NCBI GenBank assembly: GCA_963619015.1
Contig: CAVEUW010000003.1
Span: forward strand, 2,640-66,639
Length of the DNA: 64,000 bases
Direction: 5' to 3'
From: Senegalimassilia sp.
GTDB taxonomy: Bacteria > Actinomycetota > Coriobacteriia > Coriobacteriales > Eggerthellaceae
Both the position numbers and the translations under genes were made by a program. The notes beneath the pieces are model-generated. The model had not been told where the DNA came from. It did no database searches and saw only the letters and a list, made by a program, of their open reading frames with translations. Within the stretch, counting starts at the first letter, position 1; every line of letters begins with the position of its first letter. Below are positions 35,924 through 52,118 of the stretch, piece by piece.

Positions 35924-35956
35924 CCTTGTCGGTCTCTCTGTACCGCCCTTAAAGGT
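35924..35956 (-). promoter_or_regulatory. PyrR-binding RNA element upstream of carA
   Basis: ACCTTTAAGGGCGGTACAGAGAGACCGACAAGG: CUUUAA and CAGAGA loop motifs of PyrR sites. TATAAT at 35964-35969 just upstream; terminator downstream. Confidence 0.82.
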
Positions 35957-39157: not shown

Positions 39158-40492
39158 TTATTTCGCTGAAGGACAAAAAGCGACTAAAGCAGCACTGCTT
39201 TCAAAGGTAGCAACGATACGATTTGAAAGCGAATCCCACGAAACAGAGGTTGTATCGAAACCGCTTCCGAACTCAGGATTTTCTGCAGCTTTAAGGAGTG
39301 AGTCCTTAAGAGCTGCCGCCAAACGACGTTCAAAATCAGGCAATTCGGATTCAACGGGCGTGTCGGTGCCTATGATTGTCGGGGTATTAACAAACAACAC
39401 TGGGGCGCCCGGTAAAGCCGCTTCAAGCCATGGCTTAACACCGGGCAAATTGGTTACGACTGCTCGACACCCGCATGCCATAGCCTCAATTGTTACAAGC
39501 GGAAGGCCTTCGAAAAATGACGGCAAAACGAAAATATGCGAGCCACGATACGCAGCAACGAGTTCATCTTGGCTGACGCGCCCAGCAAAATGAACTGGCA
39601 CGGGACTTTTTGTCGCTAAACTCACGATTTCATCGTATTGTGCCTGGTCGCTATGGCCCCCAACCAGCTGCAACTCAAGCTGATATGGAAAATCCTTCAG
39701 ATATTGCATCGAGCGAACAAGGCTTTCAACACCCTTTGCGCGGCAAATTTTACCTACATACAAGATACGCAACGGGTCTTGAGTACGCAGCGAAACATCA
39801 GTGTTGAACTCACGCGCGTTGTACCCAGTTCCCACAACATGAACCTTATCGCTTGCGACTCCGAAAACATCAACTATTTCTGATGCTTGCTCTGTATGCA
39901 AAGAGAAAATGCCATCAAGGCAGCGAACCGCCTCAATGATACGTTTGCGTTCCAAACCATGACTTTTTATCTGACGTAAATCAGTCGAATGACTAAGCGC
40001 CCACAGTTGGCATTTTAGCTGGTTAGAGCTACTTGAATTGTCTTGCTTGGCTCGACTCATAGGTTTCGGTGACCGATTTATACCGGCATCGCTATACATT
40101 CGCTGGATTGTTTCAACCATAACCGAACATACCAGGTAAAGATGATGACAAAGAATCACATCGGGGTGAAAATCGCGGACGACTTCTTCAATCCGTTTAG
40201 AAAAAGCGTCACGAAACACTTCAACCATATCAGGGGTCATATCACGATAGCGAGTCGCCTCGTAAGGCATGACATCACTCATACCACAGACAGGAAACGA
40301 CAACTCACCAGTTCGATACCGAACCGGATAAAATTTGCAGCCGTTTGCGAGTTCGGGGTTGTCGTCTCGATCGATTCCAGCGATAACCGCAACGCTATGA
40401 CCATGCGAAATCATTGATCGAACGGTTTCGGCCAAGTAAACGCCACTTCCAGTGCTATCAGGCTTTTGAGCTGAAATACAAAGGATTCTCAT
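39158..40492 (-). CDS. Glycosyltransferase family 4 (GT-B), selenium-cluster associated
   Basis: AQKPDSTGSGVY N-terminal loop, YVGKICRAKG, VLPSFFEGLPLVTIEA (Ex7E motif). Confidence 0.9.
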   Translation of the reverse strand: MRILCISAQKPDSTGSGVYLAETVRSMISHGHSVAVIAGIDRDDNPELANGCKFYPVRYRTGELSFPVCGMSDVMPYEATRYRDMTPDMVEVFRDAFSKRIEEVVRDFHPDVILCHHLYLVCSVMVETIQRMYSDAGINRSPKPMSRAKQDNSSSSNQLKCQLWALSHSTDLRQIKSHGLERKRIIEAVRCLDGIFSLHTEQASEIVDVFGVASDKVHVVGTGYNAREFNTDVSLRTQDPLRILYVGKICRAKGVESLVRSMQYLKDFPYQLELQLVGGHSDQAQYDEIVSLATKSPVPVHFAGRVSQDELVAAYRGSHIFVLPSFFEGLPLVTIEAMACGCRAVVTNLPGVKPWLEAALPGAPVLFVNTPTIIGTDTPVESELPDFERRLAAALKDSLLKAAENPEFGSGFDTTSVSWDSLSNRIVATFESSAALVAFCPSAK

Positions 40493-40542: not shown

Positions 40543-41682
40543 TTAAACAAGCTCAGCCGCAATTTCTTTAATAGCAACAATAGCCTGGTCAACTTCGTCT
40601 TCGGTATTAAACCACCCAAAACTAAAACGAACAACGCCCTGTTCGGCTGTACCGAGAGCTTTATGCATCAATGGAGCGCAATGAGCACCAGGGCGCGTAC
40701 ATATATCATAACGGGAAGACAACAGGTCACTTACGGTACCCGAATCAACCTCAGCGATGTTAAGGGCAACAATCCCACAACGCTTTTGCTCCCCACCGCC
40801 ATACACACGAACAGCTTCGACATCTGAAATACCATCTACAAATCGATCACAGAGCAACTGAACCTTAGCTTGAACAGTGCTTACGCCAATGCCATCCAAA
40901 AAGGCAACCCCCGCAGAAAGACCAGCCAAACCGTGAGCATTCGCCGTGCCAGCTTCTAAGCCCTCAGGCATGAAGCGCGGATGACGCTCGTCGAAGCTAT
41001 GTACGCCAGACCCGCCTTCTAAAAGAGGCACAATTTCAAGCCCTTCGCGAACAGCCAAACCGCCAGTGCCTTGTGGGCCATAGAGCGACTTATGGCCTGT
41101 AAAGCACACAACATCGGCGTCTATCTCCTGCATAGAAAACGGCAAACAACCTGCAGTTTGAGCGGCATCCAATATAAAAAGCGCACCCGACTCGTGAGCT
41201 GCCTCACACATGCGGGCTACATCGTAAACATCACCTGTCACATTCGAAGCGTGAGTAACCACAACCAATGACGCATCCGTCAAGGCGCGCTCATATGAAT
41301 CCCAGTCAAGCGACCCATCAGGGTTAATTGCGGCAACACTCACCGAACAGGAGCGGGTATCGCGAGCGCGGAATAGCGGTCGCAAAACGGAATTATGCGA
41401 AGCAGCGGTAGTAACCGCCTTCGACCTATCAGGCAGAAGACCTTCAATCGCAATGTTTAAAGCCATCGTTGCATTAAGCTCGAATGAAACACATTTAGGA
41501 CTTGAGACACCAAGTAAATTCGCAACCCGTGAGCGCGCAGAAAAAACTGCCATCGAAGCATCAAGTGCTGCTTGATGCGAACCACGCCCCGGCCCGCCAA
41601 AGCAAGACATCGCATTACTGACAGCGGAAATCACCTGTTCAGGCTTATGCATCGTGGAGGCAGCATTATCGAAATACAGCAT
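40543..41682 (-). CDS. Class V PLP enzyme, cysteine desulfurase / selenocysteine lyase family (TIGR01977-like)
   Basis: YFDNAAST, DAAQTAG, FTGHKSLYGPQGTG, catalytic RPGAHCAP. Confidence 0.9.
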   Translation of the reverse strand: MLYFDNAASTMHKPEQVISAVSNAMSCFGGPGRGSHQAALDASMAVFSARSRVANLLGVSSPKCVSFELNATMALNIAIEGLLPDRSKAVTTAASHNSVLRPLFRARDTRSCSVSVAAINPDGSLDWDSYERALTDASLVVVTHASNVTGDVYDVARMCEAAHESGALFILDAAQTAGCLPFSMQEIDADVVCFTGHKSLYGPQGTGGLAVREGLEIVPLLEGGSGVHSFDERHPRFMPEGLEAGTANAHGLAGLSAGVAFLDGIGVSTVQAKVQLLCDRFVDGISDVEAVRVYGGGEQKRCGIVALNIAEVDSGTVSDLLSSRYDICTRPGAHCAPLMHKALGTAEQGVVRFSFGWFNTEDEVDQAIVAIKEIAAELV

Positions 41683-41691
41683 ATCAAACTC

Positions 41692-42459
41692 CTAACAGGC
41701 TTCCTGTTTAAGTTCGCTAGCAAGAAGAGCGGCTCCTATTGCGCCCGCAAAGCGCGCTTGCTCACAGGTTGCGACAGGCGCGTTAAGCTGAACTGAAAGC
41801 TGTTCGCAAAAATAGTTGTTATCACACAAACCGCCAGTTAAGAAGTACTGCTTCGCGGGAATTTGCCCCACAAGGACAGCAACGCGTTTTACCACTGAAG
41901 CAATAATTCCATTCGCGATATTCTCTCGTGGCTCTCCGCGCCCGACAAGCGAGATAACCTCAGACTCCGCAAACACCGTGCACATATTTGAGATTTCTGT
42001 TGGGTTGCCAGCTTGTGCCATGCGCGACAATTCCTCTTGAGAAACCCCCAGTCGATCAGCCATAATCTCAAGAAACCGACCGGTTCCGGCAGAACATTTA
42101 TCATTCATTACAAACTTCATCACACGACCACCGCGAAGACTTATTGCCTTAGTGTCCTGCCCACCAACGTCTACAACGGTACCGTCTGCTTGAAACAGAA
42201 AGTCAGCACCACGGCCATGGCAAGTGATTTCAGTAACTACTTTTGTCGCATACGGCACAGAAACGCGACCATAACCAGTAGCAACAACGGGATGCTCTTC
42301 CACAGAAAAACCTGCATCAGCTAAACGCCCACACGCCTCTTCAGCAGCAGCAACGCTTGAATAACCTGTCGGCATAATAAAGGTTTCGACAACTTCGTTA
42401 TTCTCAACAACTGCTACCTTTGTAGCAGTTGAACCAATATCGATACCAATTCCAGCCAA
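41692..42459 (-). CDS. ASKHA ATP-dependent [4Fe-4S] activator/reductase (HgdC/YjiL/DCCP-R family)
   Basis: GIDIGSTATK, TGYGR, TEITCH, DVGGQDTK, MNDKCSAGTG, CTVFAESE. TTG start after SD GGAAGG. Confidence 0.92.
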   Translation of the reverse strand: MAGIGIDIGSTATKVAVVENNEVVETFIMPTGYSSVAAAEEACGRLADAGFSVEEHPVVATGYGRVSVPYATKVVTEITCHGRGADFLFQADGTVVDVGGQDTKAISLRGGRVMKFVMNDKCSAGTGRFLEIMADRLGVSQEELSRMAQAGNPTEISNMCTVFAESEVISLVGRGEPRENIANGIIASVVKRVAVLVGQIPAKQYFLTGGLCDNNYFCEQLSVQLNAPVATCEQARFAGAIGAALLASELKQEAC

Positions 42460-42666
42460 TGAAAACACCTTCCAAATCGTTAGGTTCAAGACTATCAGAT
42501 GCCATCAAAGACAGCCCAATGAACTAGAGAAACGGTATATTTGCCCATACAAATACAAGGCATTTGAACTCACCTGTTGTGGGATTTGCCCATCAGAGCA
42601 AACCAATGTGCTCTGATATACTTTCATACGTTGTATAGGAAAGCAAAATACCAGCAAAGAGGTGAA

Positions 42667-43764
42667 ATGAGCGAAACGAGCCACATAAGCAACGGTCCTG
42701 AAAACGACGGTGACCGAATCAGGCTCACGCTTCTCACCGACAAAGGTGGTTGAGCTGCGAAATGGGGTCCGGGTGATCTCACGGAAATATTGAAAAACAT
42801 TACGCCAGCCGACATGTTTGACCCCAACATTCTGCTCGGATTCGACACTGCCGACGATGCCGCTGTGTACAAAATCGACGACAACAATGCTGCTGTGTTA
42901 ACGCTCGATTTCTTTACTCCGGTCGTTGACGACCCGTACGAATACGGAGCCATTGCTGCAGCCAATGCACTTTCCGACGTCTTCGCTATGGGTGCCCGAC
43001 CAGTGACAGCTCTTAACATCCTGGCATTCCCAAGCTGCCTTGGTAAAGAGGTGGTTGGAGAAGTTTTGCGCGGAGGCGCAGATAAGGTCCGCGAAGCTGG
43101 TGCGTTTGTTGTCGGCGGCCATTCCATCGAAGACGACGAACCAAAATACGGGCTTTCCGTATTTGGTCTGGTAGACCCTAAAAAACTTATCCGTAATGGC
43201 GGCGCTTTACCTGGTGATGCACTGTATTACACAAAAACGCTCGGCACCGGAATTATGAACGCAGCACTTCGCGCGAAACTAAAAAGTGAAGAGGAATTGC
43301 GTCCGGTTATTGATTCTATGATGGAGTTGAACAAAGCAGCTTCTGAGGCCGGTATCGCCGCTGGCATGCGTGCGTGTACCGACGTAACCGGGTTTGGACT
43401 GGCAGGGCATTTACACGAAATGGTCGAGGCTTCAGCTTGTGCCGTACGTATCAGTTGGGACGCCATTCCCCTATTTGACGGCGTATACGAACTCTCATGC
43501 GATTACTGCCGTCCAGGTAAAACGTTTGGAATCATAGACTGGGCAACTGAGTTTGTCGCACAAGGCAGCCTTGATGATTTCGAATTCGACAACCGTATGG
43601 GCGTGCTCTGCGACCCGCAAAGCTCAGGGGGGCTACTTATCGCCATACCTCCGGAAAACGTCGAGATTTTCGAGAAAGAGTTCGAACGCCTTTGCGGACG
43701 CACAGCAGCCCGCATCGGCGAATTTATCGACGGCAAGCCAGGGACTATCCAAGTTGAGTGGTAA
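42667..43764 (+). CDS. selD: Selenophosphate synthetase, selenocysteine-containing (Sec29, TGA at 42751-42753)
   Basis: ATG 42667 (SD GAGGTG) reads MSETSH...RLTLLTDKGG-TGA-AAKWGPGDL in frame with the track ORF 42790-43764 (DDAAVY, DFFTPVVDDP, TDVTGFGLAGH, DPQSSGGLL). The TGA sits at the catalytic Cys/Sec position. Confidence 0.96.
42763..42781 (+). promoter_or_regulatory. Putative bacterial SECIS hairpin of selD
   Basis: TGGGGTC-CGGGT-GATCTCA; 16 nt separate the UGA from the loop, which has G as its second base. Confidence 0.7.
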
Positions 43765-43830: not shown

Positions 43831-44070
43831 TTAATATAGATCAACTACAAAAAGCGCGGCAAAGACAAGATTATTGTCTTGCAAAGCTGAAAGTAAAGTT
43901 TCCTTCCCCTTAAGGGGAACAGACCACGCAAGGCCGCAACCTGCACTAACTTCGGAGGGAACTGGAATTACCCGCCCCGGAACTTTACCCGCATCAGCAG
44001 CAGTTTGTACTGCCATTGCATCAGCAGTGTTATCGAAGGTTAAAACCGCGTGAGGAGTTTTCTTACGCAT
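43831..44070 (-). CDS. DUF3343-family protein (putative S/Se carrier)
   Basis: VLTFDNTADAM...GRVIPVPSEVSAGCGLAW. Start re-assigned to MRKKTP. Confidence 0.85.
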   Translation of the reverse strand: MRKKTPHAVLTFDNTADAMAVQTAADAGKVPGRVIPVPSEVSAGCGLAWSVPLKGKETLLSALQDNNLVFAALFVVDLY

Positions 44071-44083
44071 GCAAGGAAAACCT

Positions 44084-44680
44084 CTACGGGCGAACAACAA
44101 CGCGTGCGTTCAGTTGCTTTTCAACGATGACGTACATGTTGGTGACCTCACCGACGGCAAGCTTTTCAGTAAGCCCATAGTGATTCAAGCACGTGCCGCA
44201 GGAATAAATCTCAACTCCGGCTTCAGCAAGCTTTTTCAAATCTTCAAGCGCAGGGCTTCCCTCACACGTCAGCTTCACACCGCCGTTGTATGCAAGAATA
44301 GTTTGCGGGAGTTCGTCTTGCTGAGTCAGTGCGAACACAAACGCCTTCGCAAGCGTTGCACCGAGTTCATCGTCTCCTGAGCCCATAAACTCACTAGAAA
44401 GCACGACAACCTTGTCACCAGCAGGGATAAGCTCGCCACAGCTAGACTCTGCAGGTGCTTCGTCACCCGTCTTTGTAAACGTCACAGCAAAGTTTTGTGC
44501 ATCACGCACATCTGATGAAGTTGCAATCTTAAGCGACTTGCCAAGGTTTTCCAGATTATGCATAGCCGTCTCATTGTCGACGAGGACCTCAAGTTCACCC
44601 GCACCCATTTCCGCAAGCGCCTTCTTCGCGCGAACGACAGGAATCGGGCACGCCTCTCCTCGAGCATCAAGCTGTTCCAC
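44084..44680 (-). CDS. yedF: Sulfurtransferase-like selenium metabolism protein YedF (TusA/SirA + DsrE-like domains)
   Basis: LDARGEACPIPVV, MGSGDDELG, YNGGVKL, SCGTCLNHY, VGEVTNMY. Confidence 0.9.
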   Translation of the reverse strand: MEQLDARGEACPIPVVRAKKALAEMGAGELEVLVDNETAMHNLENLGKSLKIATSSDVRDAQNFAVTFTKTGDEAPAESSCGELIPAGDKVVVLSSEFMGSGDDELGATLAKAFVFALTQQDELPQTILAYNGGVKLTCEGSPALEDLKKLAEAGVEIYSCGTCLNHYGLTEKLAVGEVTNMYVIVEKQLNARVVVRP

Positions 44681-44813: not shown

Positions 44814-46022
44814 TTACAGCATCTCAATGAAAGCTGCTAAGCGCGTTTCAATCTGGCCAGAATCGTTCGTCGAATAATCGGTCTCGAGTTTCATGTACGG
44901 CACTCCAGCCTCTTCGCAAGCAGCGGCCACCTTCACTGACTCGATATTGAAGGTATGGCAGGCTTGTAATACAACTTCGACAACACCATCAACCTGGTAC
45001 TTCTTGACCATGCCCATCATATTCTCGATACGACCCTCATTCGGTGACATAACCGAGCAATTGATTGAAAGATAACGGTCGGAAATTGCGCGCAAGATAT
45101 CGGGGGCATCAGGGTCAACCAGCATAGACTGAGTGCGCTCGCCTGAGCAATCGTCAAGAGCCACGATAACGCCACCAGCCCTCTCAACCGTCATGCCAAC
45201 CTTCTGAATAACACCACCAGTCGGACACCCCGTAAGCATGATACGTTTGGCACTTGCCGAAATCGGACGCTCACCTGCCTCGTAGGCACTACGACGCTTC
45301 TCGGCAAGATCTTCAAGTGTTTTTGCATAGTCATCGACATTAAAGCTGAACGTCGCCTTCAAAAGCGTTGCCATCATCTCTACGCCGCTCATCGCAGGAG
45401 GGACTTGAGCTTGCAATTCGTACAGACTACACATCGCGCGACGAACGCGGTTACGCTTGCGAACAGCTTCACGCATAGCCTCGTCGGTAATTTCAACGTT
45501 GAAGCGATTCTCAAGTTCGGCTTTCAGAAGCTTCGCTTCCTCGTACCACACATCACCTGCGTAACTACGCGTGCGACTTTGCGGTAGCTGCATCACGTGC
45601 ACCGGCTTGATGTCTGAGAGCAACTCGTACATCTTTTTCTTGCCGTCACAGGTTGTCTCTCCAAGCACCATGTCGGAGAAGTACGTGAAAGGACACTTGT
45701 TTGTAAGCGCAAATCCATAGGTGCCCTTGATAAGCGGACAAAGATTTTTCGGCAACACCGTTTCGGCATCAGGAATGGTTTCGTTGTTCATACCACAAAG
45801 CCCAACGGCGGCAACACCAGCGGCATCAAGCAACTCAAGCGGACTGTATGAACACAAATAGCCAGCAAGCTTGCCGCCTTTCTGCTTGTAATTCATTGCA
45901 GCAACAAAGCTTGCACGGCGCGCCTCGTCAAACGATTCGTAAATGGAAGGAAGATCTGTTGGAACGCAAGGTTCGTCAGACTCGGAAGATTTAGAAACCT
46001 CGGTTGAAATATTTTCTGACAT
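44814..46022 (-). CDS. Double-cubane-cluster anaerobic reductase (YjiM/DCCP; 2-hydroxyacyl-CoA dehydratase-like fold)
   Basis: [65 protein letters not shown]. Confidence 0.88.
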
Positions 46023-46227: not shown

Positions 46228-47799
46228 ATGCCAGGGAAACCTAACACCGAAGCGCTCAGAACCCTTCCCCAGGTCGAAGAGCTGATGCACGCACCACAGC
46301 TTGAGGCGCTCGAACCACTTATCCCCCGTCCGATTCTTGTCGATTGCGCACGCGAGGCTATTGAAGCAACTCGTAGCAAAATTCTTGACGGCTCAGCAAC
46401 TTCAGCAGATAACACTGCAATAGCCGATGCCGTCTGCACAGCAGCGCTCGCAAATTTGCGACCCTCACTTCGCCGAGTTATCAACGCAACCGGCGTGATT
46501 ATCCACACGAATCTTGGCAGAAGTGCGCTTGCTGAAAGTGCTGTTGATGCGGTTGTGGAAGCTGCGCGGGGCTATTCGACGCTTGAATACAACACCGATG
46601 AGATGCAGCGCGGAAATCGAAATGAGCATATCGAGCATTTACTGAAATCGCTTACCGGCGCTGAAGCAGCCATAGCAGTCAACAACAATGCTGCTGCCGT
46701 CATGATGGTGCTTTCCGAATTCGCCTCAGGACATGAGGCTATTGTTAGCCGTGGTGAGCTTGTTGAAATCGGCGGCAGTTTCCGCATTCCCGACATCATG
46801 GCACAGTCGCATGCGCACATGGTGGAAGTTGGCACCACGAATAAAACTCATGCACTCGATTACGAACGAGCAATAACACCGCAAACAGCAATGCTGCTGA
46901 AGGTTCATCCGTCCAATTACCGTATGATTGGCTTTACCGAGAGCGTTTCAAAAGAAGAGCTTCGACATATCGCCGATGCAGAAAACGCACGTCGAAGTGA
47001 ATCGTCTGAGTGTTCTGGCGACGCCGGGACTACAACAAGCACGGCGAATATTCCTGTTCTTGTATACGAAGATCAGGGTTCTGGTGCCTTCGAAAAGTTA
47101 ACCGTCTTTGGTCAATACGCCGAGCCAACGGTTCGCGAATCACTTGCCGCTGGTTGCGATCTTGTGTCGTTTTCCGGGGACAAACTGCTCGGTGGGCCTC
47201 AAGCAGGAATCATCGTTGGTCGAAAAGACCTGATAAGCCGACTAAAAAAGAACCCGCTTGCACGAGCGCTACGCTTAGACAAGATGACGCTTGCTGCCCT
47301 TGAGGCAACACTTCGCCTGTATCTCGATCACGAGCAAGCACTCAAAGAAATCCCCACGCTTCGCATGCTTACTGAAAACGCTGACGTAGTTCAATTGCGC
47401 GCCGAAAAACTCAGCAAGGCAATTCGCAAAAACGTTACTACTAAGCAGGCACAACTTGAAGTTGTGCAAGAAATTGGGCGCGCTGGCGGCGGTGCGCTTC
47501 CTATGTGCGACATTGATACCTACTGCGTACAAGTAACGTTTAGGTGCGGAAATGCTCAAGAGTGCGAGACTTTCCTTCAACAAAAACGCACCGTGCCTGT
47601 CATCGGACGCATCAAGAAAGAGTCAGTGCTCTTCGATGCACGAACAATAAACGAAGACGACATTGCCGAGATTGCTAGTGCTATGAAAGCCTACTTCGAG
47701 CATATTCCCAATAATCAAAAAGGTGCACAGAACGCCTCGTCCAGCAAATCACCAACGGCGAAATCGGCGAAATCGGCGAAAACATCAATGAAGGCGTAG
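46228..47799 (+). CDS. selA: L-seryl-tRNA(Sec) selenium transferase
   Basis: VINATGVIIHTNLGR, VNNNAAA, ELVEIGGSFRIP, EVGTTN, FSGDKLLGGPQAG. Confidence 0.96.
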   Translation: MPGKPNTEALRTLPQVEELMHAPQLEALEPLIPRPILVDCAREAIEATRSKILDGSATSADNTAIADAVCTAALANLRPSLRRVINATGVIIHTNLGRSALAESAVDAVVEAARGYSTLEYNTDEMQRGNRNEHIEHLLKSLTGAEAAIAVNNNAAAVMMVLSEFASGHEAIVSRGELVEIGGSFRIPDIMAQSHAHMVEVGTTNKTHALDYERAITPQTAMLLKVHPSNYRMIGFTESVSKEELRHIADAENARRSESSECSGDAGTTTSTANIPVLVYEDQGSGAFEKLTVFGQYAEPTVRESLAAGCDLVSFSGDKLLGGPQAGIIVGRKDLISRLKKNPLARALRLDKMTLAALEATLRLYLDHEQALKEIPTLRMLTENADVVQLRAEKLSKAIRKNVTTKQAQLEVVQEIGRAGGGALPMCDIDTYCVQVTFRCGNAQECETFLQQKRTVPVIGRIKKESVLFDARTINEDDIAEIASAMKAYFEHIPNNQKGAQNASSSKSPTAKSAKSAKTSMKA

Positions 47800-47807
47800 G
47801 TGAAGCC

Positions 47808-49730
47808 ATGGGCGAAGCAATCAACCTTTCAACACCTGACCTGATTTTAGGCACTGCAGGCCATATCGATCACGGCAAATCAACACTCGTTCATGCTCTC
47901 ACTGGCACCGACCCCGACCGACTCGCCGCCGAAAAAGAGCGCGGCATCACAATTGAACTGGGGTTTGCCAAGCTAGAACTCCCAAGCGGTATACACATGG
48001 GAGTTGTTGACGTACCTGGCCACGAACGTTTTGTACGCCAAATGATTGCCGGCGCTACGGGTGTTGACATTGCTCTTCTATGCATTGCTGCTGATGACGG
48101 CATAATGCCTCAAACCGAAGAACATCTTGCTGTCTTAACGTTGCTCGGAGTACCGAAACTCGTCGTAGCACTAACGAAATCCGATTTAGCAGACGAAGAA
48201 TGGCTTGAAGTTATCGCAGATGACATTCGCGAGCGACTCAAAAGCACACCTTATGCGAATTCACCCATCGTTTCCGTCTCCGCGCGAACAGGCGATGGGA
48301 TTGACAACCTAAAAGCTGCACTCGATAAGGCAGCAAGTCAAACACACCGTAGCCGTACCGAGGGAGCATTCCGCCTGCCTGTAGATAGGTCATTTGCTAT
48401 CAAAGGTGCAGGAACGGTCATTACTGGCACATTATGGTCCGGCGTCGTAAACGTCGGTGACGAAGTTGAAATATTGCCTGCAGGAAAACTTTCGCGCGTG
48501 CGTTCTATCCAGGTACATAATCAGCCAGTTGAATCCGCAGGTCCAGGTCACAGAACTGCGCTTAACCTTAATGGCGTCTCGACTGACGAGGTGCGACCGG
48601 GCGACTTTTTATGCACGCCGGGAAGCCTTACCCCCAGCGATCATTTCGATGTGGAATTCACCTATCTCGGGCTTCCGGGTTCTACAAAGCCACTTCAAAG
48701 CGGTTCTCGCGTACATGTGGCGCATGGTACGAAAGAAGTTGTCGGGCGCATTTTGCTTATGGACGATAACAGTATTGCTCCCGGCACGACTGCGCTCGCG
48801 CAAATTCGCACAGAAGGCGACCTTTCCGTCGCACGCAGTGACCGATTCATTATTCGCTCGTATTCTCCAGTGTTCGTTATTGGTGGCGGTCAGATTCTGC
48901 GCGCTCACCCACGACGCTCGACGAACCTTTCCGACGGCGAGCAAAAGCTAGTCGAAGCACTTCAATCGAACGACAACACACGTGCTATACAAGCGGTTAT
49001 CGAATCTGCAAGTATCCCGCTCGGCGTTGACGAGGTTGCTAACATGGTTGGGCTTTTACCCGATCAAACAAGAAACGAGCTTACAAACCTGACAAAAGCA
49101 GGCGCTATCACACAAATTGGCGAAGCCTTTGCCACAAAATCGCTCATACAAAAACTTACGAGCAAAATTGAAAACACCCTGATGAAATATCACTCAGCAA
49201 ACCCGCAGGCCACCGGTATGTCAAAAGGCGCCCTTATTGCGGCTGTATGTCCGAAATGTCCTGAAGCAACCTTCAATGCTGTTCTTGAATATGCCTGCAA
49301 ACAAGGAAAAGCTGTTTTTGCTGAAGGAGAAGTAAGCCACCCAACCGAAGGCGCAGGCGCCCGAAAGCTTGAAGAACAAGCTGCCGAGAAACTTTCATCT
49401 GCGCTAAAAGCTGCCGGAAGTACGCCTGCTTTCGCCAAAGATCTTATTGCCGAAGCCGGGCTTACTGCACAGGCTGGCTACAAAGCCTTTGGCAAACTAG
49501 AAGCCACTGACAGAGCAGTCAAGGTGAATAACGATTTGTACTTTGATGCCACTGTATTTAAACAGTTTGAACAAGCACTTCGAACTAAGCTTGCAGACGG
49601 TCCTGCAAGCGCGGCCGACTTAAAAGACGCAATGGGCACCAGCCGCAAATACGCAATCCCGCTGCTAGAGTATTTTGACAGCATTGGTATCACTCGACGC
49701 GTCGGTGACGCTCGCGAACTTATTAGCTAA
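47808..49730 (+). CDS. selB: Selenocysteine-specific elongation factor
   Basis: GTAGHIDHGKS, RGITIELGF, DVPGHERF; C-terminal winged helix GTSRKYAIPLLEYFD. Confidence 0.96.
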   Translation: MGEAINLSTPDLILGTAGHIDHGKSTLVHALTGTDPDRLAAEKERGITIELGFAKLELPSGIHMGVVDVPGHERFVRQMIAGATGVDIALLCIAADDGIMPQTEEHLAVLTLLGVPKLVVALTKSDLADEEWLEVIADDIRERLKSTPYANSPIVSVSARTGDGIDNLKAALDKAASQTHRSRTEGAFRLPVDRSFAIKGAGTVITGTLWSGVVNVGDEVEILPAGKLSRVRSIQVHNQPVESAGPGHRTALNLNGVSTDEVRPGDFLCTPGSLTPSDHFDVEFTYLGLPGSTKPLQSGSRVHVAHGTKEVVGRILLMDDNSIAPGTTALAQIRTEGDLSVARSDRFIIRSYSPVFVIGGGQILRAHPRRSTNLSDGEQKLVEALQSNDNTRAIQAVIESASIPLGVDEVANMVGLLPDQTRNELTNLTKAGAITQIGEAFATKSLIQKLTSKIENTLMKYHSANPQATGMSKGALIAAVCPKCPEATFNAVLEYACKQGKAVFAEGEVSHPTEGAGARKLEEQAAEKLSSALKAAGSTPAFAKDLIAEAGLTAQAGYKAFGKLEATDRAVKVNNDLYFDATVFKQFEQALRTKLADGPASAADLKDAMGTSRKYAIPLLEYFDSIGITRRVGDARELIS

Positions 49731-49839: not shown

Positions 49840-49936
49840 GGAGATGGATGGGTCCTGGTGGGCCCCGCGGCCTTCAAAGCCGTTGTGAGGCGCGCAGAAC
49901 GTCTTGGGTGTGTTCGATTCGCACGCATCTCCGCCA
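49840..49936 (+). tRNA. selC: tRNA-Sec (anticodon UCA)
   Basis: GGAGATG/CATCTCC acceptor with G73-CCA, 6-bp D stem GGGTCC-TGGT-GGGCCC, anticodon loop CTTCAAA (TCA at 49874-49876), long variable arm, T arm GTGTG-TTCGATT-CGCAC; directly after selAB. Confidence 0.96.
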
Positions 49937-50476: not shown

Positions 50477-50815
50477 TTACTGCCCTTGCTGTTCTTTCAT
50501 AGCTGCAAACGGCAAAAATTGCCGACCTCGGTCAGGGGAAGAGGTTGCCACGCGCGGGCCCTCAGCAGCTACCCGACGCGCAATGTCATCAAGAACTTGC
50601 TCACGATATTCGCGCTCGCCGGGCTTCAAATCCGACCACTGCCCCACATTGGGCAAAGATGCCTGCTTGTATGCCTGCTGCAACGCAGCCTTCTGCACCG
50701 CAGCTTGACCATCCGCTTGTTGTAACGCAGCCTTCTGCAACGCAGCCTTCTGCGTCGCCGCTTGCTGCGACTGTTGGCCCACCGCTTGCTGTAACACTTC
50801 ACCTTCCCTATGCAC
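50477..50815 (-). CDS. Short Q/A-repeat protein ending in a YolD-like motif (possibly truncated YolD)
   Basis: GTG start after SD GGAGGT, overlapping the polymerase stop; QKAAL repeats; C-terminal DRGRQFLPFAAMK. Confidence 0.55.
   Translation of the reverse strand: MHREGEVLQQAVGQQSQQAATQKAALQKAALQQADGQAAVQKAALQQAYKQASLPNVGQWSDLKPGEREYREQVLDDIARRVAAEGPRVATSSPDRGRQFLPFAAMKEQQGQ
50675..50797. repeat. Degenerate 15-bp-period repeat encoding QKAAL/QQA
   Basis: Repeated (TG)CAACGCAGCCTTC and CCGCTTG(C/T)TG units. Confidence 0.75.
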
Positions 50816-52118
50816 GATGACCTCCGATCTGCTGGTTACGTTCACGGGCGTTTGCTTCCTCTTTCAGACTTGTGCCCGTAAGCATTGCATTTGCCCCAAA
50901 GCGTGCGCGCACCGAAACCATCGCTTCAGCAAGCGCATCTTGCTTTTCCTGATCAGCATGGTCATCGAATAATGTCATCTGCACTTCGCTTTTATCAACA
51001 AGTCCTGAATACGAAACACCCAAGCGCCTGATTTTAAGCTTTGGGTCAATCGTCTTACGATAGACCTCCACCACAGCCGACACCAGTTCACGAGGAGTAT
51101 TTTCAGGCTTAGGAAGCTTCATTGAGCCTCCTGCAGACAAATTCGGTGCACACCAAAAGCCAACTTCCCAATTTTGATGCGCAAAATTTGAATTGGAATA
51201 ACCAATATGCACCCCGACCGTCTGCGCAGCAAGCCCCTTTTCTACCAGTTCAAGCGCAGATGCAAGCGCCATTTCACGCAGCACAGTTTCGGCCTCAGCA
51301 AACGTGTAGTCGCGCATGAGTACCTGCCCGCTATCGACGGAATGCCCGCGACGCTTGTAGCCGCGTGCCTCAGCAATAGTGCATGGTTCAAGGCCCCAAG
51401 CGTGGTCAAGCAGATATTCACCATTGACACCAAACTCGCGACGAATTACCTCATGAGGAAGAGCACAGATACCCGCCAAGTCATACACACCGTACTTAGA
51501 CAGGCGTTTTGCGATACCGCGGCCAATACCCCAAATATCAGTTATAGGACGATGAAACCAAATGTCGCGTTTGAAGGTAGCATCATCAAGCACGCCTATA
51601 CCATCAGGTGCATGCTTCGCTGTTACATCAAGTGCAACCTTCGCCAGAAACATGTTCGGACCAATCCCTGCCGTTGCCGTAATATGTGTTTCTTCAAGCA
51701 CAGCACTCATCAGGTGCTTCGCAAAGGTGCGCGCATCGGTGTGATACAGCCTCAAATACGGCGTCGCATCAATAAAGCATTCGTCAACCGAATAGACATG
51801 CATATCAATGTCACTTACAAAGCGCTGATAAATCCCATTAATCTTTTCGCTTACCCGCATATACTCGCGCATACGCGGAACAGCAGTTATGTAATCAATA
51901 CCTTCTGGAATATCACGCACGCGACAGCGGTTCTTTACCCCAAGTGCTTTCATTGCCGGCGTGATGGCAAGGCAGATGGTATTCGCCGAACGATCAGGGT
52001 CGGCCACCACCAAATTTGTTGTAAACGGATCAAGCCCACGGGCAGCGCATTCAACACTAGCGTAGAACGACTTCAGGTCGATACACATGAAGGTATGTTC
52101 CCAAGCATCGCTTTGCAT
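50808..52118 (-). CDS. Y-family error-prone DNA polymerase (UmuC/UvrX-like)
   Basis: CIDLKSFYASVEC, YSVDECFID, TAGIGPNMFLAKVALD, DIWGIG, C-terminal RNQQIGGH. Confidence 0.92.
   Translation of the reverse strand: MQSDAWEHTFMCIDLKSFYASVECAARGLDPFTTNLVVADPDRSANTICLAITPAMKALGVKNRCRVRDIPEGIDYITAVPRMREYMRVSEKINGIYQRFVSDIDMHVYSVDECFIDATPYLRLYHTDARTFAKHLMSAVLEETHITATAGIGPNMFLAKVALDVTAKHAPDGIGVLDDATFKRDIWFHRPITDIWGIGRGIAKRLSKYGVYDLAGICALPHEVIRREFGVNGEYLLDHAWGLEPCTIAEARGYKRRGHSVDSGQVLMRDYTFAEAETVLREMALASALELVEKGLAAQTVGVHIGYSNSNFAHQNWEVGFWCAPNLSAGGSMKLPKPENTPRELVSAVVEVYRKTIDPKLKIRRLGVSYSGLVDKSEVQMTLFDDHADQEKQDALAEAMVSVRARFGANAMLTGTSLKEEANARERNQQIGGHRA

Follow-up and report, generated by a model that had tools for sequence, protein, structure and literature searches.

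In the available text of PMC10891094, SenB is called the only known Se-glycosyltransferase family. According to the same text, the enzyme inverts configuration, taking an alpha donor to a beta product, and holds selenophosphate in a pocket formed by N20, H58, R61, T83, T85 and R155. For the glycosyltransferase (GT) family described here, no study was found in the literature searched, and the supplementary tables of the senABC and SAO papers may list it. A Slackia glycosyltransferase, Shel_25140, is given uncommented among the YedE partners in Table 1 of Lin 2015 (PMC5322559). In the portions available, the string 'glycosyl' matched one table cell of that paper and had no match in Haft (bioRxiv 2022.07.06.499078).

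The GT gene lies at 39158..40492 (minus strand) of the window, by which we mean the whole 64,000-nucleotide stretch of Senegalimassilia sp. DNA that was analysed. It encodes 444 aa from an ATG start and, based on its Pfam domains, motifs and AlphaFold2 model, was annotated as a GT4 glycosyltransferase of an unmodelled family. The Pfam matches were to PF00534, PF13692 and PF13439, and none of the NCBIfam models was matched at its cut-off. The AlphaFold2 model (mean pLDDT 93.4) showed a GT-B fold. A sequence-only reading of this DNA had described a GT4 enzyme with an Ex7E motif and the stretch AQKPDSTGSG; these were confirmed at E328-E336 and at residues 8-17, respectively, together with the Pfam GT4 domains. 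The features that characterise retaining GT4 enzymes were found, namely the GT-B fold, PF00534/PF13439, Ex7E, a catalytic His in the N-domain and a basic pair in the C-domain. The motifs shared with the family are QxPxxTGSG, GMSDxMPY, CHHL, H168-x-TDLRQ, GK248xxxxK253G and E328GLPLxxxE336.

The gene is the last of a three-gene run on the minus strand. The run starts with an ATP-dependent activase of the BcrAD_BadFG type (41692..42489; TIGR00241 at 236 bits, PF01869; start codon uncertain), presumed to be the partner of the double-cubane protein, and continues with a selenocysteine-lyase-like cysteine desulfurase (40543..41682; TIGR01977 at 385 bits, cut-off 377). The desulfurase scored 297.8 against the SclA model NF040779, under the cut-off of 525. 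The order of this run and its gaps of 9 and then 50 bp (stop to start) were as previously described, and selD is indeed divergent from it, starting at the ATG at 42667 and not at the TTG at 42790 of the ORF list. The selD gene (42667..43764, plus strand; TIGR00476) encodes a selenophosphate synthetase that is itself a selenoprotein: the frame is open when TGA is read as U, and the one TGA within the family match, at codon 29 (GGU-AAK), specifies Sec29. The N-terminal part that holds this TGA (42667-42790) is absent from the ORF list. In many Atopobiaceae-like relatives, and in some others, SelD contains no TGA.

Past selD, the cluster continues with genes that had gone unmentioned in the sequence-only reading. 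These are a DUF3343 putative Se/S carrier (43831..44100, minus; PF11823), the selenium metabolism protein gene yedF (44084..44680, minus; TIGR03527 at 205 bits, cut-off 110), a double-cubane cluster reductase (44814..46022, minus; NF040772 at 483 bits, cut-off 350), selA (46228..47799, plus; TIGR00474 at 559 bits), selB for the Sec elongation factor (47808..49730, plus; TIGR00475 at 397 bits) and tRNA-Sec, selC (49840..49932, plus; Rfam RF01852, ARAGORN). Right after tRNA-Sec, a DNA polymerase IV-like gene and a small YolD-like ORF with QQA repeats occupy 50477-52118, a segment that is possibly an inserted element.

Downstream of the GT lies a pyr operon, and the remaining window is housekeeping. 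An identical 19-base stretch occurs at 35928 and 39080, upstream of pyrR and carA, together with a terminator-like hairpin (39029-39003, minus) and with no Rfam match at the gathering score; these look like PyrR attenuator sites. Five records with a carB 65-75% identical to that of the window and a Coriobacteriia-like gene order bear titles that look wrong (Bacteroidaceae, Subdoligranulum, Treponemataceae, Firmicutes, Acutalibacteraceae; L039/L041/L061/L072/L095). Promoter and terminator scans remained at shuffle level.

Polysaccharide, flippase and NDP-sugar genes had been stated to be missing nearby, which held in two scans of 12 and 20 window ORFs and in a reading of ORFs by eye. The generic database name of a polysaccharide or cell-wall GT was rejected, as no such genes are present at the locus or among the recurrent neighbours. 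The absence of a senA/egtB-like gene was also upheld, now for the whole source genome (92% complete), in which the FGE-sulfatase/EgtB-SenA domain (PF03781) was absent, TIGR04348 (SenB) had no match and PIG-L deacetylase (PF02585) had 0 matches.

A full HMMER scan (E<=1e-30) yielded 329 family clusters at 50% identity, which by names and Atlas clusters span Actinomycetota, Bacillota and Thermodesulfobacteriota. GMS[DN]xMPY was present in 561/561 full-length relatives, a count that is partly circular as the relatives were found via similarity. A FastTree of 140 members was used to choose queries, and in the alignment of 140 members Q9, P11, TGSG, GMSDxMPY, H117, H168 (99%), R173, Q174, K248 (100%), K253 (100%), E328 (99%) and E336 (99%) were invariant or nearly so. 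The GT belongs to a GT4 family that is distinct, has no model of its own and occurs in anaerobes. No family match came from the phage records; single matches came from a plasmid-collection record and a provirus flank. A search for longer fusions gave one with Gfo/Idh/MocA; overall, fusions were to Gfo/Idh/MocA (P0243, P0298) and to a GGCT-like domain (P0236), and DUF6873 was found at the GT C-terminus by fusion in P0217 and P0223 and adjacent in L194:8190-8909. A degenerate paralogue of ~28% identity lies between fdhE and fdhD in L244:7716-8933, L245 and L246 (genomes G218, G233 and G224); it has lost TGSG, GMSDxMPY, H117 and E328 and has kept both lysines and E336, and may be a nucleotide-binding pseudo-enzyme in formate dehydrogenase (FDH) maturation.

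The proposal was borne out in so far as the GT is not SenB. Against TIGR04348 the GT scored 24.4 bits (cut-off 300), over residues 233-353 only, and profile comparison with a TIGR04348 member gave 17% identity over 195 columns. SenB was absent from the best 60 matches listed and from the Foldseek matches listed. The scores against BshA (TIGR03999) and MshA (TIGR03449) were 24.9 bits (cut-off 273.7) and 55.5 bits (cut-off 462.5), respectively. Structure alignment gave Z 33-34 with BshA (rmsd ~3, ~350 aligned), Z 31.9 with MshA and Z 26.5 with SenB, which is shorter (rmsd 3.6, 313 aligned, 16% identity); the predicted model is nearer the O-glycosylating BshA and MshA than SenB. The catalytic-His stretch reads CHGTDLRQ in the GT, LHGTDIT in BshA and LTGTDLY in SenB. 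The HGTD-type His has a typical role in retaining GT4 enzymes, and having it, the GT looks retaining, unlike the inverting SenB.

The SenB numbering, as it appears in the available text of PMC10891094, was placed on two TIGR04348 members via motifs. Two of the six SenB residues that bind selenophosphate have counterparts in the GT: the H58 column holds the invariant H117, where BshA has Tyr, and T85 corresponds to T170 (T/S in the family), with D86 matching D171. N20 is replaced by Ser and T83 by His, and R61 and R155 are not kept. Of the donor residues, E231 is kept as E328, and N20 and T23 read S16 and Y19; K158 is kept as K253, and the EGGAHV motif reads EGLPLV. A ~65-residue insert carrying GMSDxMPY further sets the GT apart from SenB. 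As the scores, the residues and the insert all differ, the GT is not SenB.

To quantify the link with selenium, 301 Coriobacteriales genomes, evenly drawn and each at least 92% complete, were examined; six weak matches of partial length (E about 1e-46 to 1e-55), taken as other GT4s, were left out of the counts. The GT was found in 82 genomes and selD in 190; selD was present in 78/82 GT carriers compared to 112/219 non-carriers, and by genus the GT occurred in 35/50 selD-positive versus 1/32 selD-negative genera, both comparisons being among kin that are not independent, so that their p-values are too optimistic. The GT is accessory and dispensable, since 112/190 selD genomes are without it. 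Among the other Coriobacteriia orders it was found in 0/78 genomes, 75 of them with selD, and inspection around selD in 16 selD-positive, GT-negative genomes revealed no missed copy. The copies of G052 and G397 each form one open frame.

Dependence on a single selenium trait (Sec or Se-cofactor) was rejected, as carriers of each kind exist: the source genome, G000, is Sec-only (selA, no yqeB), and of the carriers without selA (selA in 0/5), yqeB was present in 4/4 tested. Dependence on the double-cubane protein was likewise rejected, its gene (E<=1e-120) occurring in 37 of the 60 carriers tested; the 60 were drawn from the 82 by setting aside three of the source genus and 19 of genus g15. With the GT in Sec-only and in Se-cofactor-only genomes, and the double-cubane protein in only part of them, SelD is the common factor, and the GT follows selD more closely than it does the double-cubane gene. 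Four carriers are selD-less. Two of these have selA (G279, G326), and in the other two, G246 (GT intact) and G158 (GT frameshifted), no selD, selA or yedF was found, selA/selB having been lost from the locus. Decay of the GT after loss of selD did not show in dN/dS, which was 0.15 for the GTs of G246/G158 compared to 0.27 in a selD-positive pair (225 codons, Nei-Gojobori), and G158 has since become frameshifted.

At the level of the locus, 56 of the 76 evaluable copies (from the 82 carriers) had selenium genes within ~8 kb, counting selA, selB, selD, yedE, yedF, yqeB, desulfurase or double-cubane. The gene orders included desulfurase-GT (own genus), activase-GT-selD, selD-GT-selA, selB-GT-desulfurase, DUF3343-GT-desulfurase and yedE-GT-desulfurase, as well as the GT divergent from selA or selD, and in L034 and L235 the GT ends yqeB-xdhC-modABC-mog runs. 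In Collinsella-like loci the GT is cleanly present or absent between activase and selD. Of the 20 unlinked copies, seven adjoin an ABC importer and two sit between fdhE and fdhD. Within Coriobacteriales, the GT thus has the two marks of a SelD-dependent gene, near-confinement to selD genomes and clustering.

Outside Coriobacteriales the physical link was rare. Selenium neighbours were present in 9/80 metagenome loci, three of which are Collinsella-like, leaving 6/77, and in 2/25 of the non-Collinsella loci with 3 kb on both sides. The six (L147, L163, L183, L184, L192, L198) are from outside Actinomycetota and show yedF-GT, GT-yedF, selD-yedF near the GT, or double-cubane/activase adjoining the GT. 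The linkage of this clade to selD, which the sequence-only reading had put forward as a check, held in Coriobacteriales for both genome and locus, and seldom elsewhere as a physical link. Named carriers include Limosilactobacillus oris, Gemella morbillorum and Coprococcus comes, all three SelD-positive in the part of supplementary file 2 of PMC5029168 that was available. In the rows viewed from that file, Lactobacillus was SelD-positive in 4/60. L. oris and G. morbillorum are rare SelD users that carry the GT. PMC5029168, as available, also gives 3/3 Facklamia and 2/2 Desulfotignum rows as SelD-positive, the named GT carriers being other strains, and the L. vaginalis type strain as SelD-negative, yet an L. 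vaginalis protein belongs to the GT family. As strains differ between the table and the GT carriers, co-occurrence by name provides hints only. In the Acetoanaerobium record, selD lies ~270 kb from the GT.

Two kinds of partner recurred beside the GT. Phosphatases were neighbours in 23/80 metagenome loci (12 PHP and 11 PP2C-like, the latter including one fusion to the GT N-terminus in L194); similarity and motif, rather than Pfam, identified the fused and L151-type PP2C-like domains. With the queries used, no PHP or PP2C-like partner was found in the source genome. MshA needs a phosphatase partner, so the GT family is in this respect similar. The other partner is a PhnS2/U2-like (AfuA-related) ABC importer, which was found in 17/301 genomes, with selD in 17/17 and the GT in 16/17, and which often abuts selD or the GT (for example L251:8919-12655, L185, L249, L250, L264-L266). 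The nearest matches of its binding protein are AfuA-type and pyridoxal-phosphate binders, and the protein keeps the AfuA phosphate ligands S37 and T150, with residue roles as given in the available part of PMC4546632. The importer is a candidate selenium-compound or phosphate-ester importer. Together, the phosphatase neighbours and the importer suggest that a substrate or product of the GT is phosphorylated. With a selenophosphosugar intermediate documented for K158A of SenB in the text available, it would be natural for the GT to be partnered by a separate phosphatase.

Taken together, the GT family is a real, uncharacterised, selenium-associated GT4 family and not SenB, and the sequence-only interpretation as a whole was partly supported. 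For acceptor, donor, stereochemistry, product and purpose, we infer the following. As an accessory enzyme of selenium metabolism, the GT would bind an NDP-sugar through K248, K253, E328 and E336 of the C-terminal domain and transfer the sugar, with configuration retained, to selenophosphate from SelD, or alternatively to selenide released by the desulfurase/YedF/DUF3343 relay. This would initially yield an alpha-glycosyl selenophosphate, to be converted into a 1-seleno-alpha-sugar either by a phosphatase of the PHP or PP2C type, in genomes that have one, or by simple hydrolysis. Such a small molecule would not be a precursor of selenoneine; it would keep activated selenium in protected, possibly reversible form, as an optional store or shuttle. 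That the GT glycosylates selenophosphate to form such an alpha-selenosugar(-phosphate) store is a tentative proposal, to which we give somewhat less than an even chance. In its favour are the co-occurrence and clustering with selD, the match of H117 and T/S170 to SenB H58 and T85, and the phosphatase and importer partners. The main contrary result is that the selD-less G246 and G158 kept the GT without relaxed selection. The four SenB pocket residues without counterparts, the closer structural match to BshA and MshA, the scarcity of selenium neighbours outside Coriobacteriales, the L. vaginalis conflict, the dispensability of the GT and the lack of a PHP or PP2C-like match in the source genome also weigh against it. 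The broader picture is doubtful: an unrecognised selenium trait of anaerobes, in which a retaining GT separate from SenB would cap selenophosphate and the product would be stored, unmasked by phosphatase and, in some lineages, imported by an AfuA-like system.

The purifying selection on the GT in selD-less relatives is also in keeping with O-glycosylation in the style of BshA, MshA or sucrose-phosphate synthase (SPS), where an NDP-sugar would react with a small acceptor, either phosphorylated or a carboxylate and perhaps taken up through the AfuA-like system, before a phosphatase acts. The product would be a solute or a low-molecular-weight thiol/selenol scaffold, with selenium added later or linked only via shared physiology. 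The best structural and profile matches (BshA, GlgM, SPS-like, MshA), the P-x-x-x-GSG and HGTD motifs of BshA type, the GT-plus-phosphatase pairs and neighbours with redox roles, among them flavodiiron protein, rhodanese, MsrAB and NiSOD, argue for this scheme. Alone, however, it gives no account of the 78/82 co-occurrence with selD or of the repeated insertion into selenium operons, and PIG-L deacetylase is absent from the genome and from the recurrent neighbours; we regard it as rather unlikely. The same evidence divides the earlier suggestion that the GT starts an MshA/BshA-like thiol or selenol: the structural resemblance stood, while the deacetylase of such a pathway is missing from the genome. 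Reversible reactions occur among other GT4 enzymes, and the importer could be read as part of a salvage route in which NDP would cleave an imported selenosugar(-phosphate), so that selenide or selenophosphate becomes available to SelD, SelA or YqeB/C. The phosphate-ester importer and the GT share selD operons (L249, L250, L251, L266), 16/17 importer genomes carry the GT, the GT adjoins the selenium importer gene yedE and a Sec-lyase-like gene in L042, L257 and L258, and the accessory distribution suits scavenging. Since the importer is present in only 16/82 carriers at the threshold used, and the source genome has none, salvage as the role of the GT is quite unlikely.

The fdhE-GT-fdhD arrangement of two genomes (L051, L242), with the degenerate paralogue at that position in three (L244-L246), raises a role in maturation: the GT would modify or hold a protein or a nucleotide-like cofactor, for instance while formate dehydrogenase or Se-Mo hydroxylase is assembled, with no free metabolite. 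The GT is also last in the yqeB-xdhC-modABC-mog runs (L034, L235) and adjoins other Mo-enzyme operons (L031, L147, L177). The majority of copies nevertheless lie outside such operons, most selD genomes with equal machinery have no GT, and the main family fully keeps its catalytic residues, which leaves this role very unlikely. Finally, the GT could be a passenger, an envelope or housekeeping GT4 that an ancestor of the Coriobacteriales captured beside its selenium genes and that has moved with them since. The weak physical link beyond Coriobacteriales, the persistence of selD-less orphans and the non-independence of kin would fit. Against this, the selenium genes that directly flank the GT are many and varied on either side, and such reshuffling within one selenium gene set is hard to reconcile with a passenger; there are independent links in other phyla, and in L. 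oris, Gemella and Acetoanaerobium the GT and selD co-occur unlinked. We consider a passenger highly improbable.

If the selenophosphate reading is true, the GT may point to a second route by which selenium is attached to sugar: a second, convergent Se-glycosyltransferase of opposite stereochemistry would lengthen the short list of enzymes that form C-Se bonds, anaerobes would have a small-molecule selenium pool not looked for so far, and the trait would extend to widespread members of the gut flora (Collinsella, Coprococcus, Eggerthellaceae). Even with other chemistry, a widespread gut-bacterial GT family gains a first functional handle, and a candidate selenium-linked ABC importer is gained that was not seen in the portions of the literature examined.

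Of the known systems, the pairs of sucrose-phosphate synthase and phosphatase share the logic of a GT4 enzyme with a phosphatase, and no SPS model was reached by the GT. In AfuABC sugar-phosphate transport, the counterpart is the importer near the GT, which is related to AfuA (E 6e-40) and keeps S37, T150 and D206. Unlike AfuA, it has no H205 or E229, and its ligand is therefore probably not a hexose 6-phosphate. BshA and MshA, which begin the synthesis of bacillithiol and mycothiol, are the best structural match, and the GT resembles them as a small-molecule GT without polysaccharide genes; with BshA it shares the GSG loop (P-x-x-x-GSG) and the HGTD catalytic His. It differs from both in having His, not Tyr, after the D-x-x-x-x-H strand and EGLPL instead of ESFG, in its link to selenium genes, and in a source genome without the PIG-L deacetylase (BshB/MshB). 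SenB (TIGR04348; PDB 8jjn, 8rz3) of the senABC selenoneine cluster is likewise a GT-B enzyme with Ex7E and linked to selD, but SenB clusters with selD and senA/egtB, whereas the GT clusters with selD without senA/egtB and is found in anaerobes. The cluster that surrounds the GT matches the selenium accessory set of YedE, YedF, DUF3343, Sec-lyase-like and double-cubane proteins as described in the available parts of PMC5322559 and bioRxiv 2022.07.06.499078.
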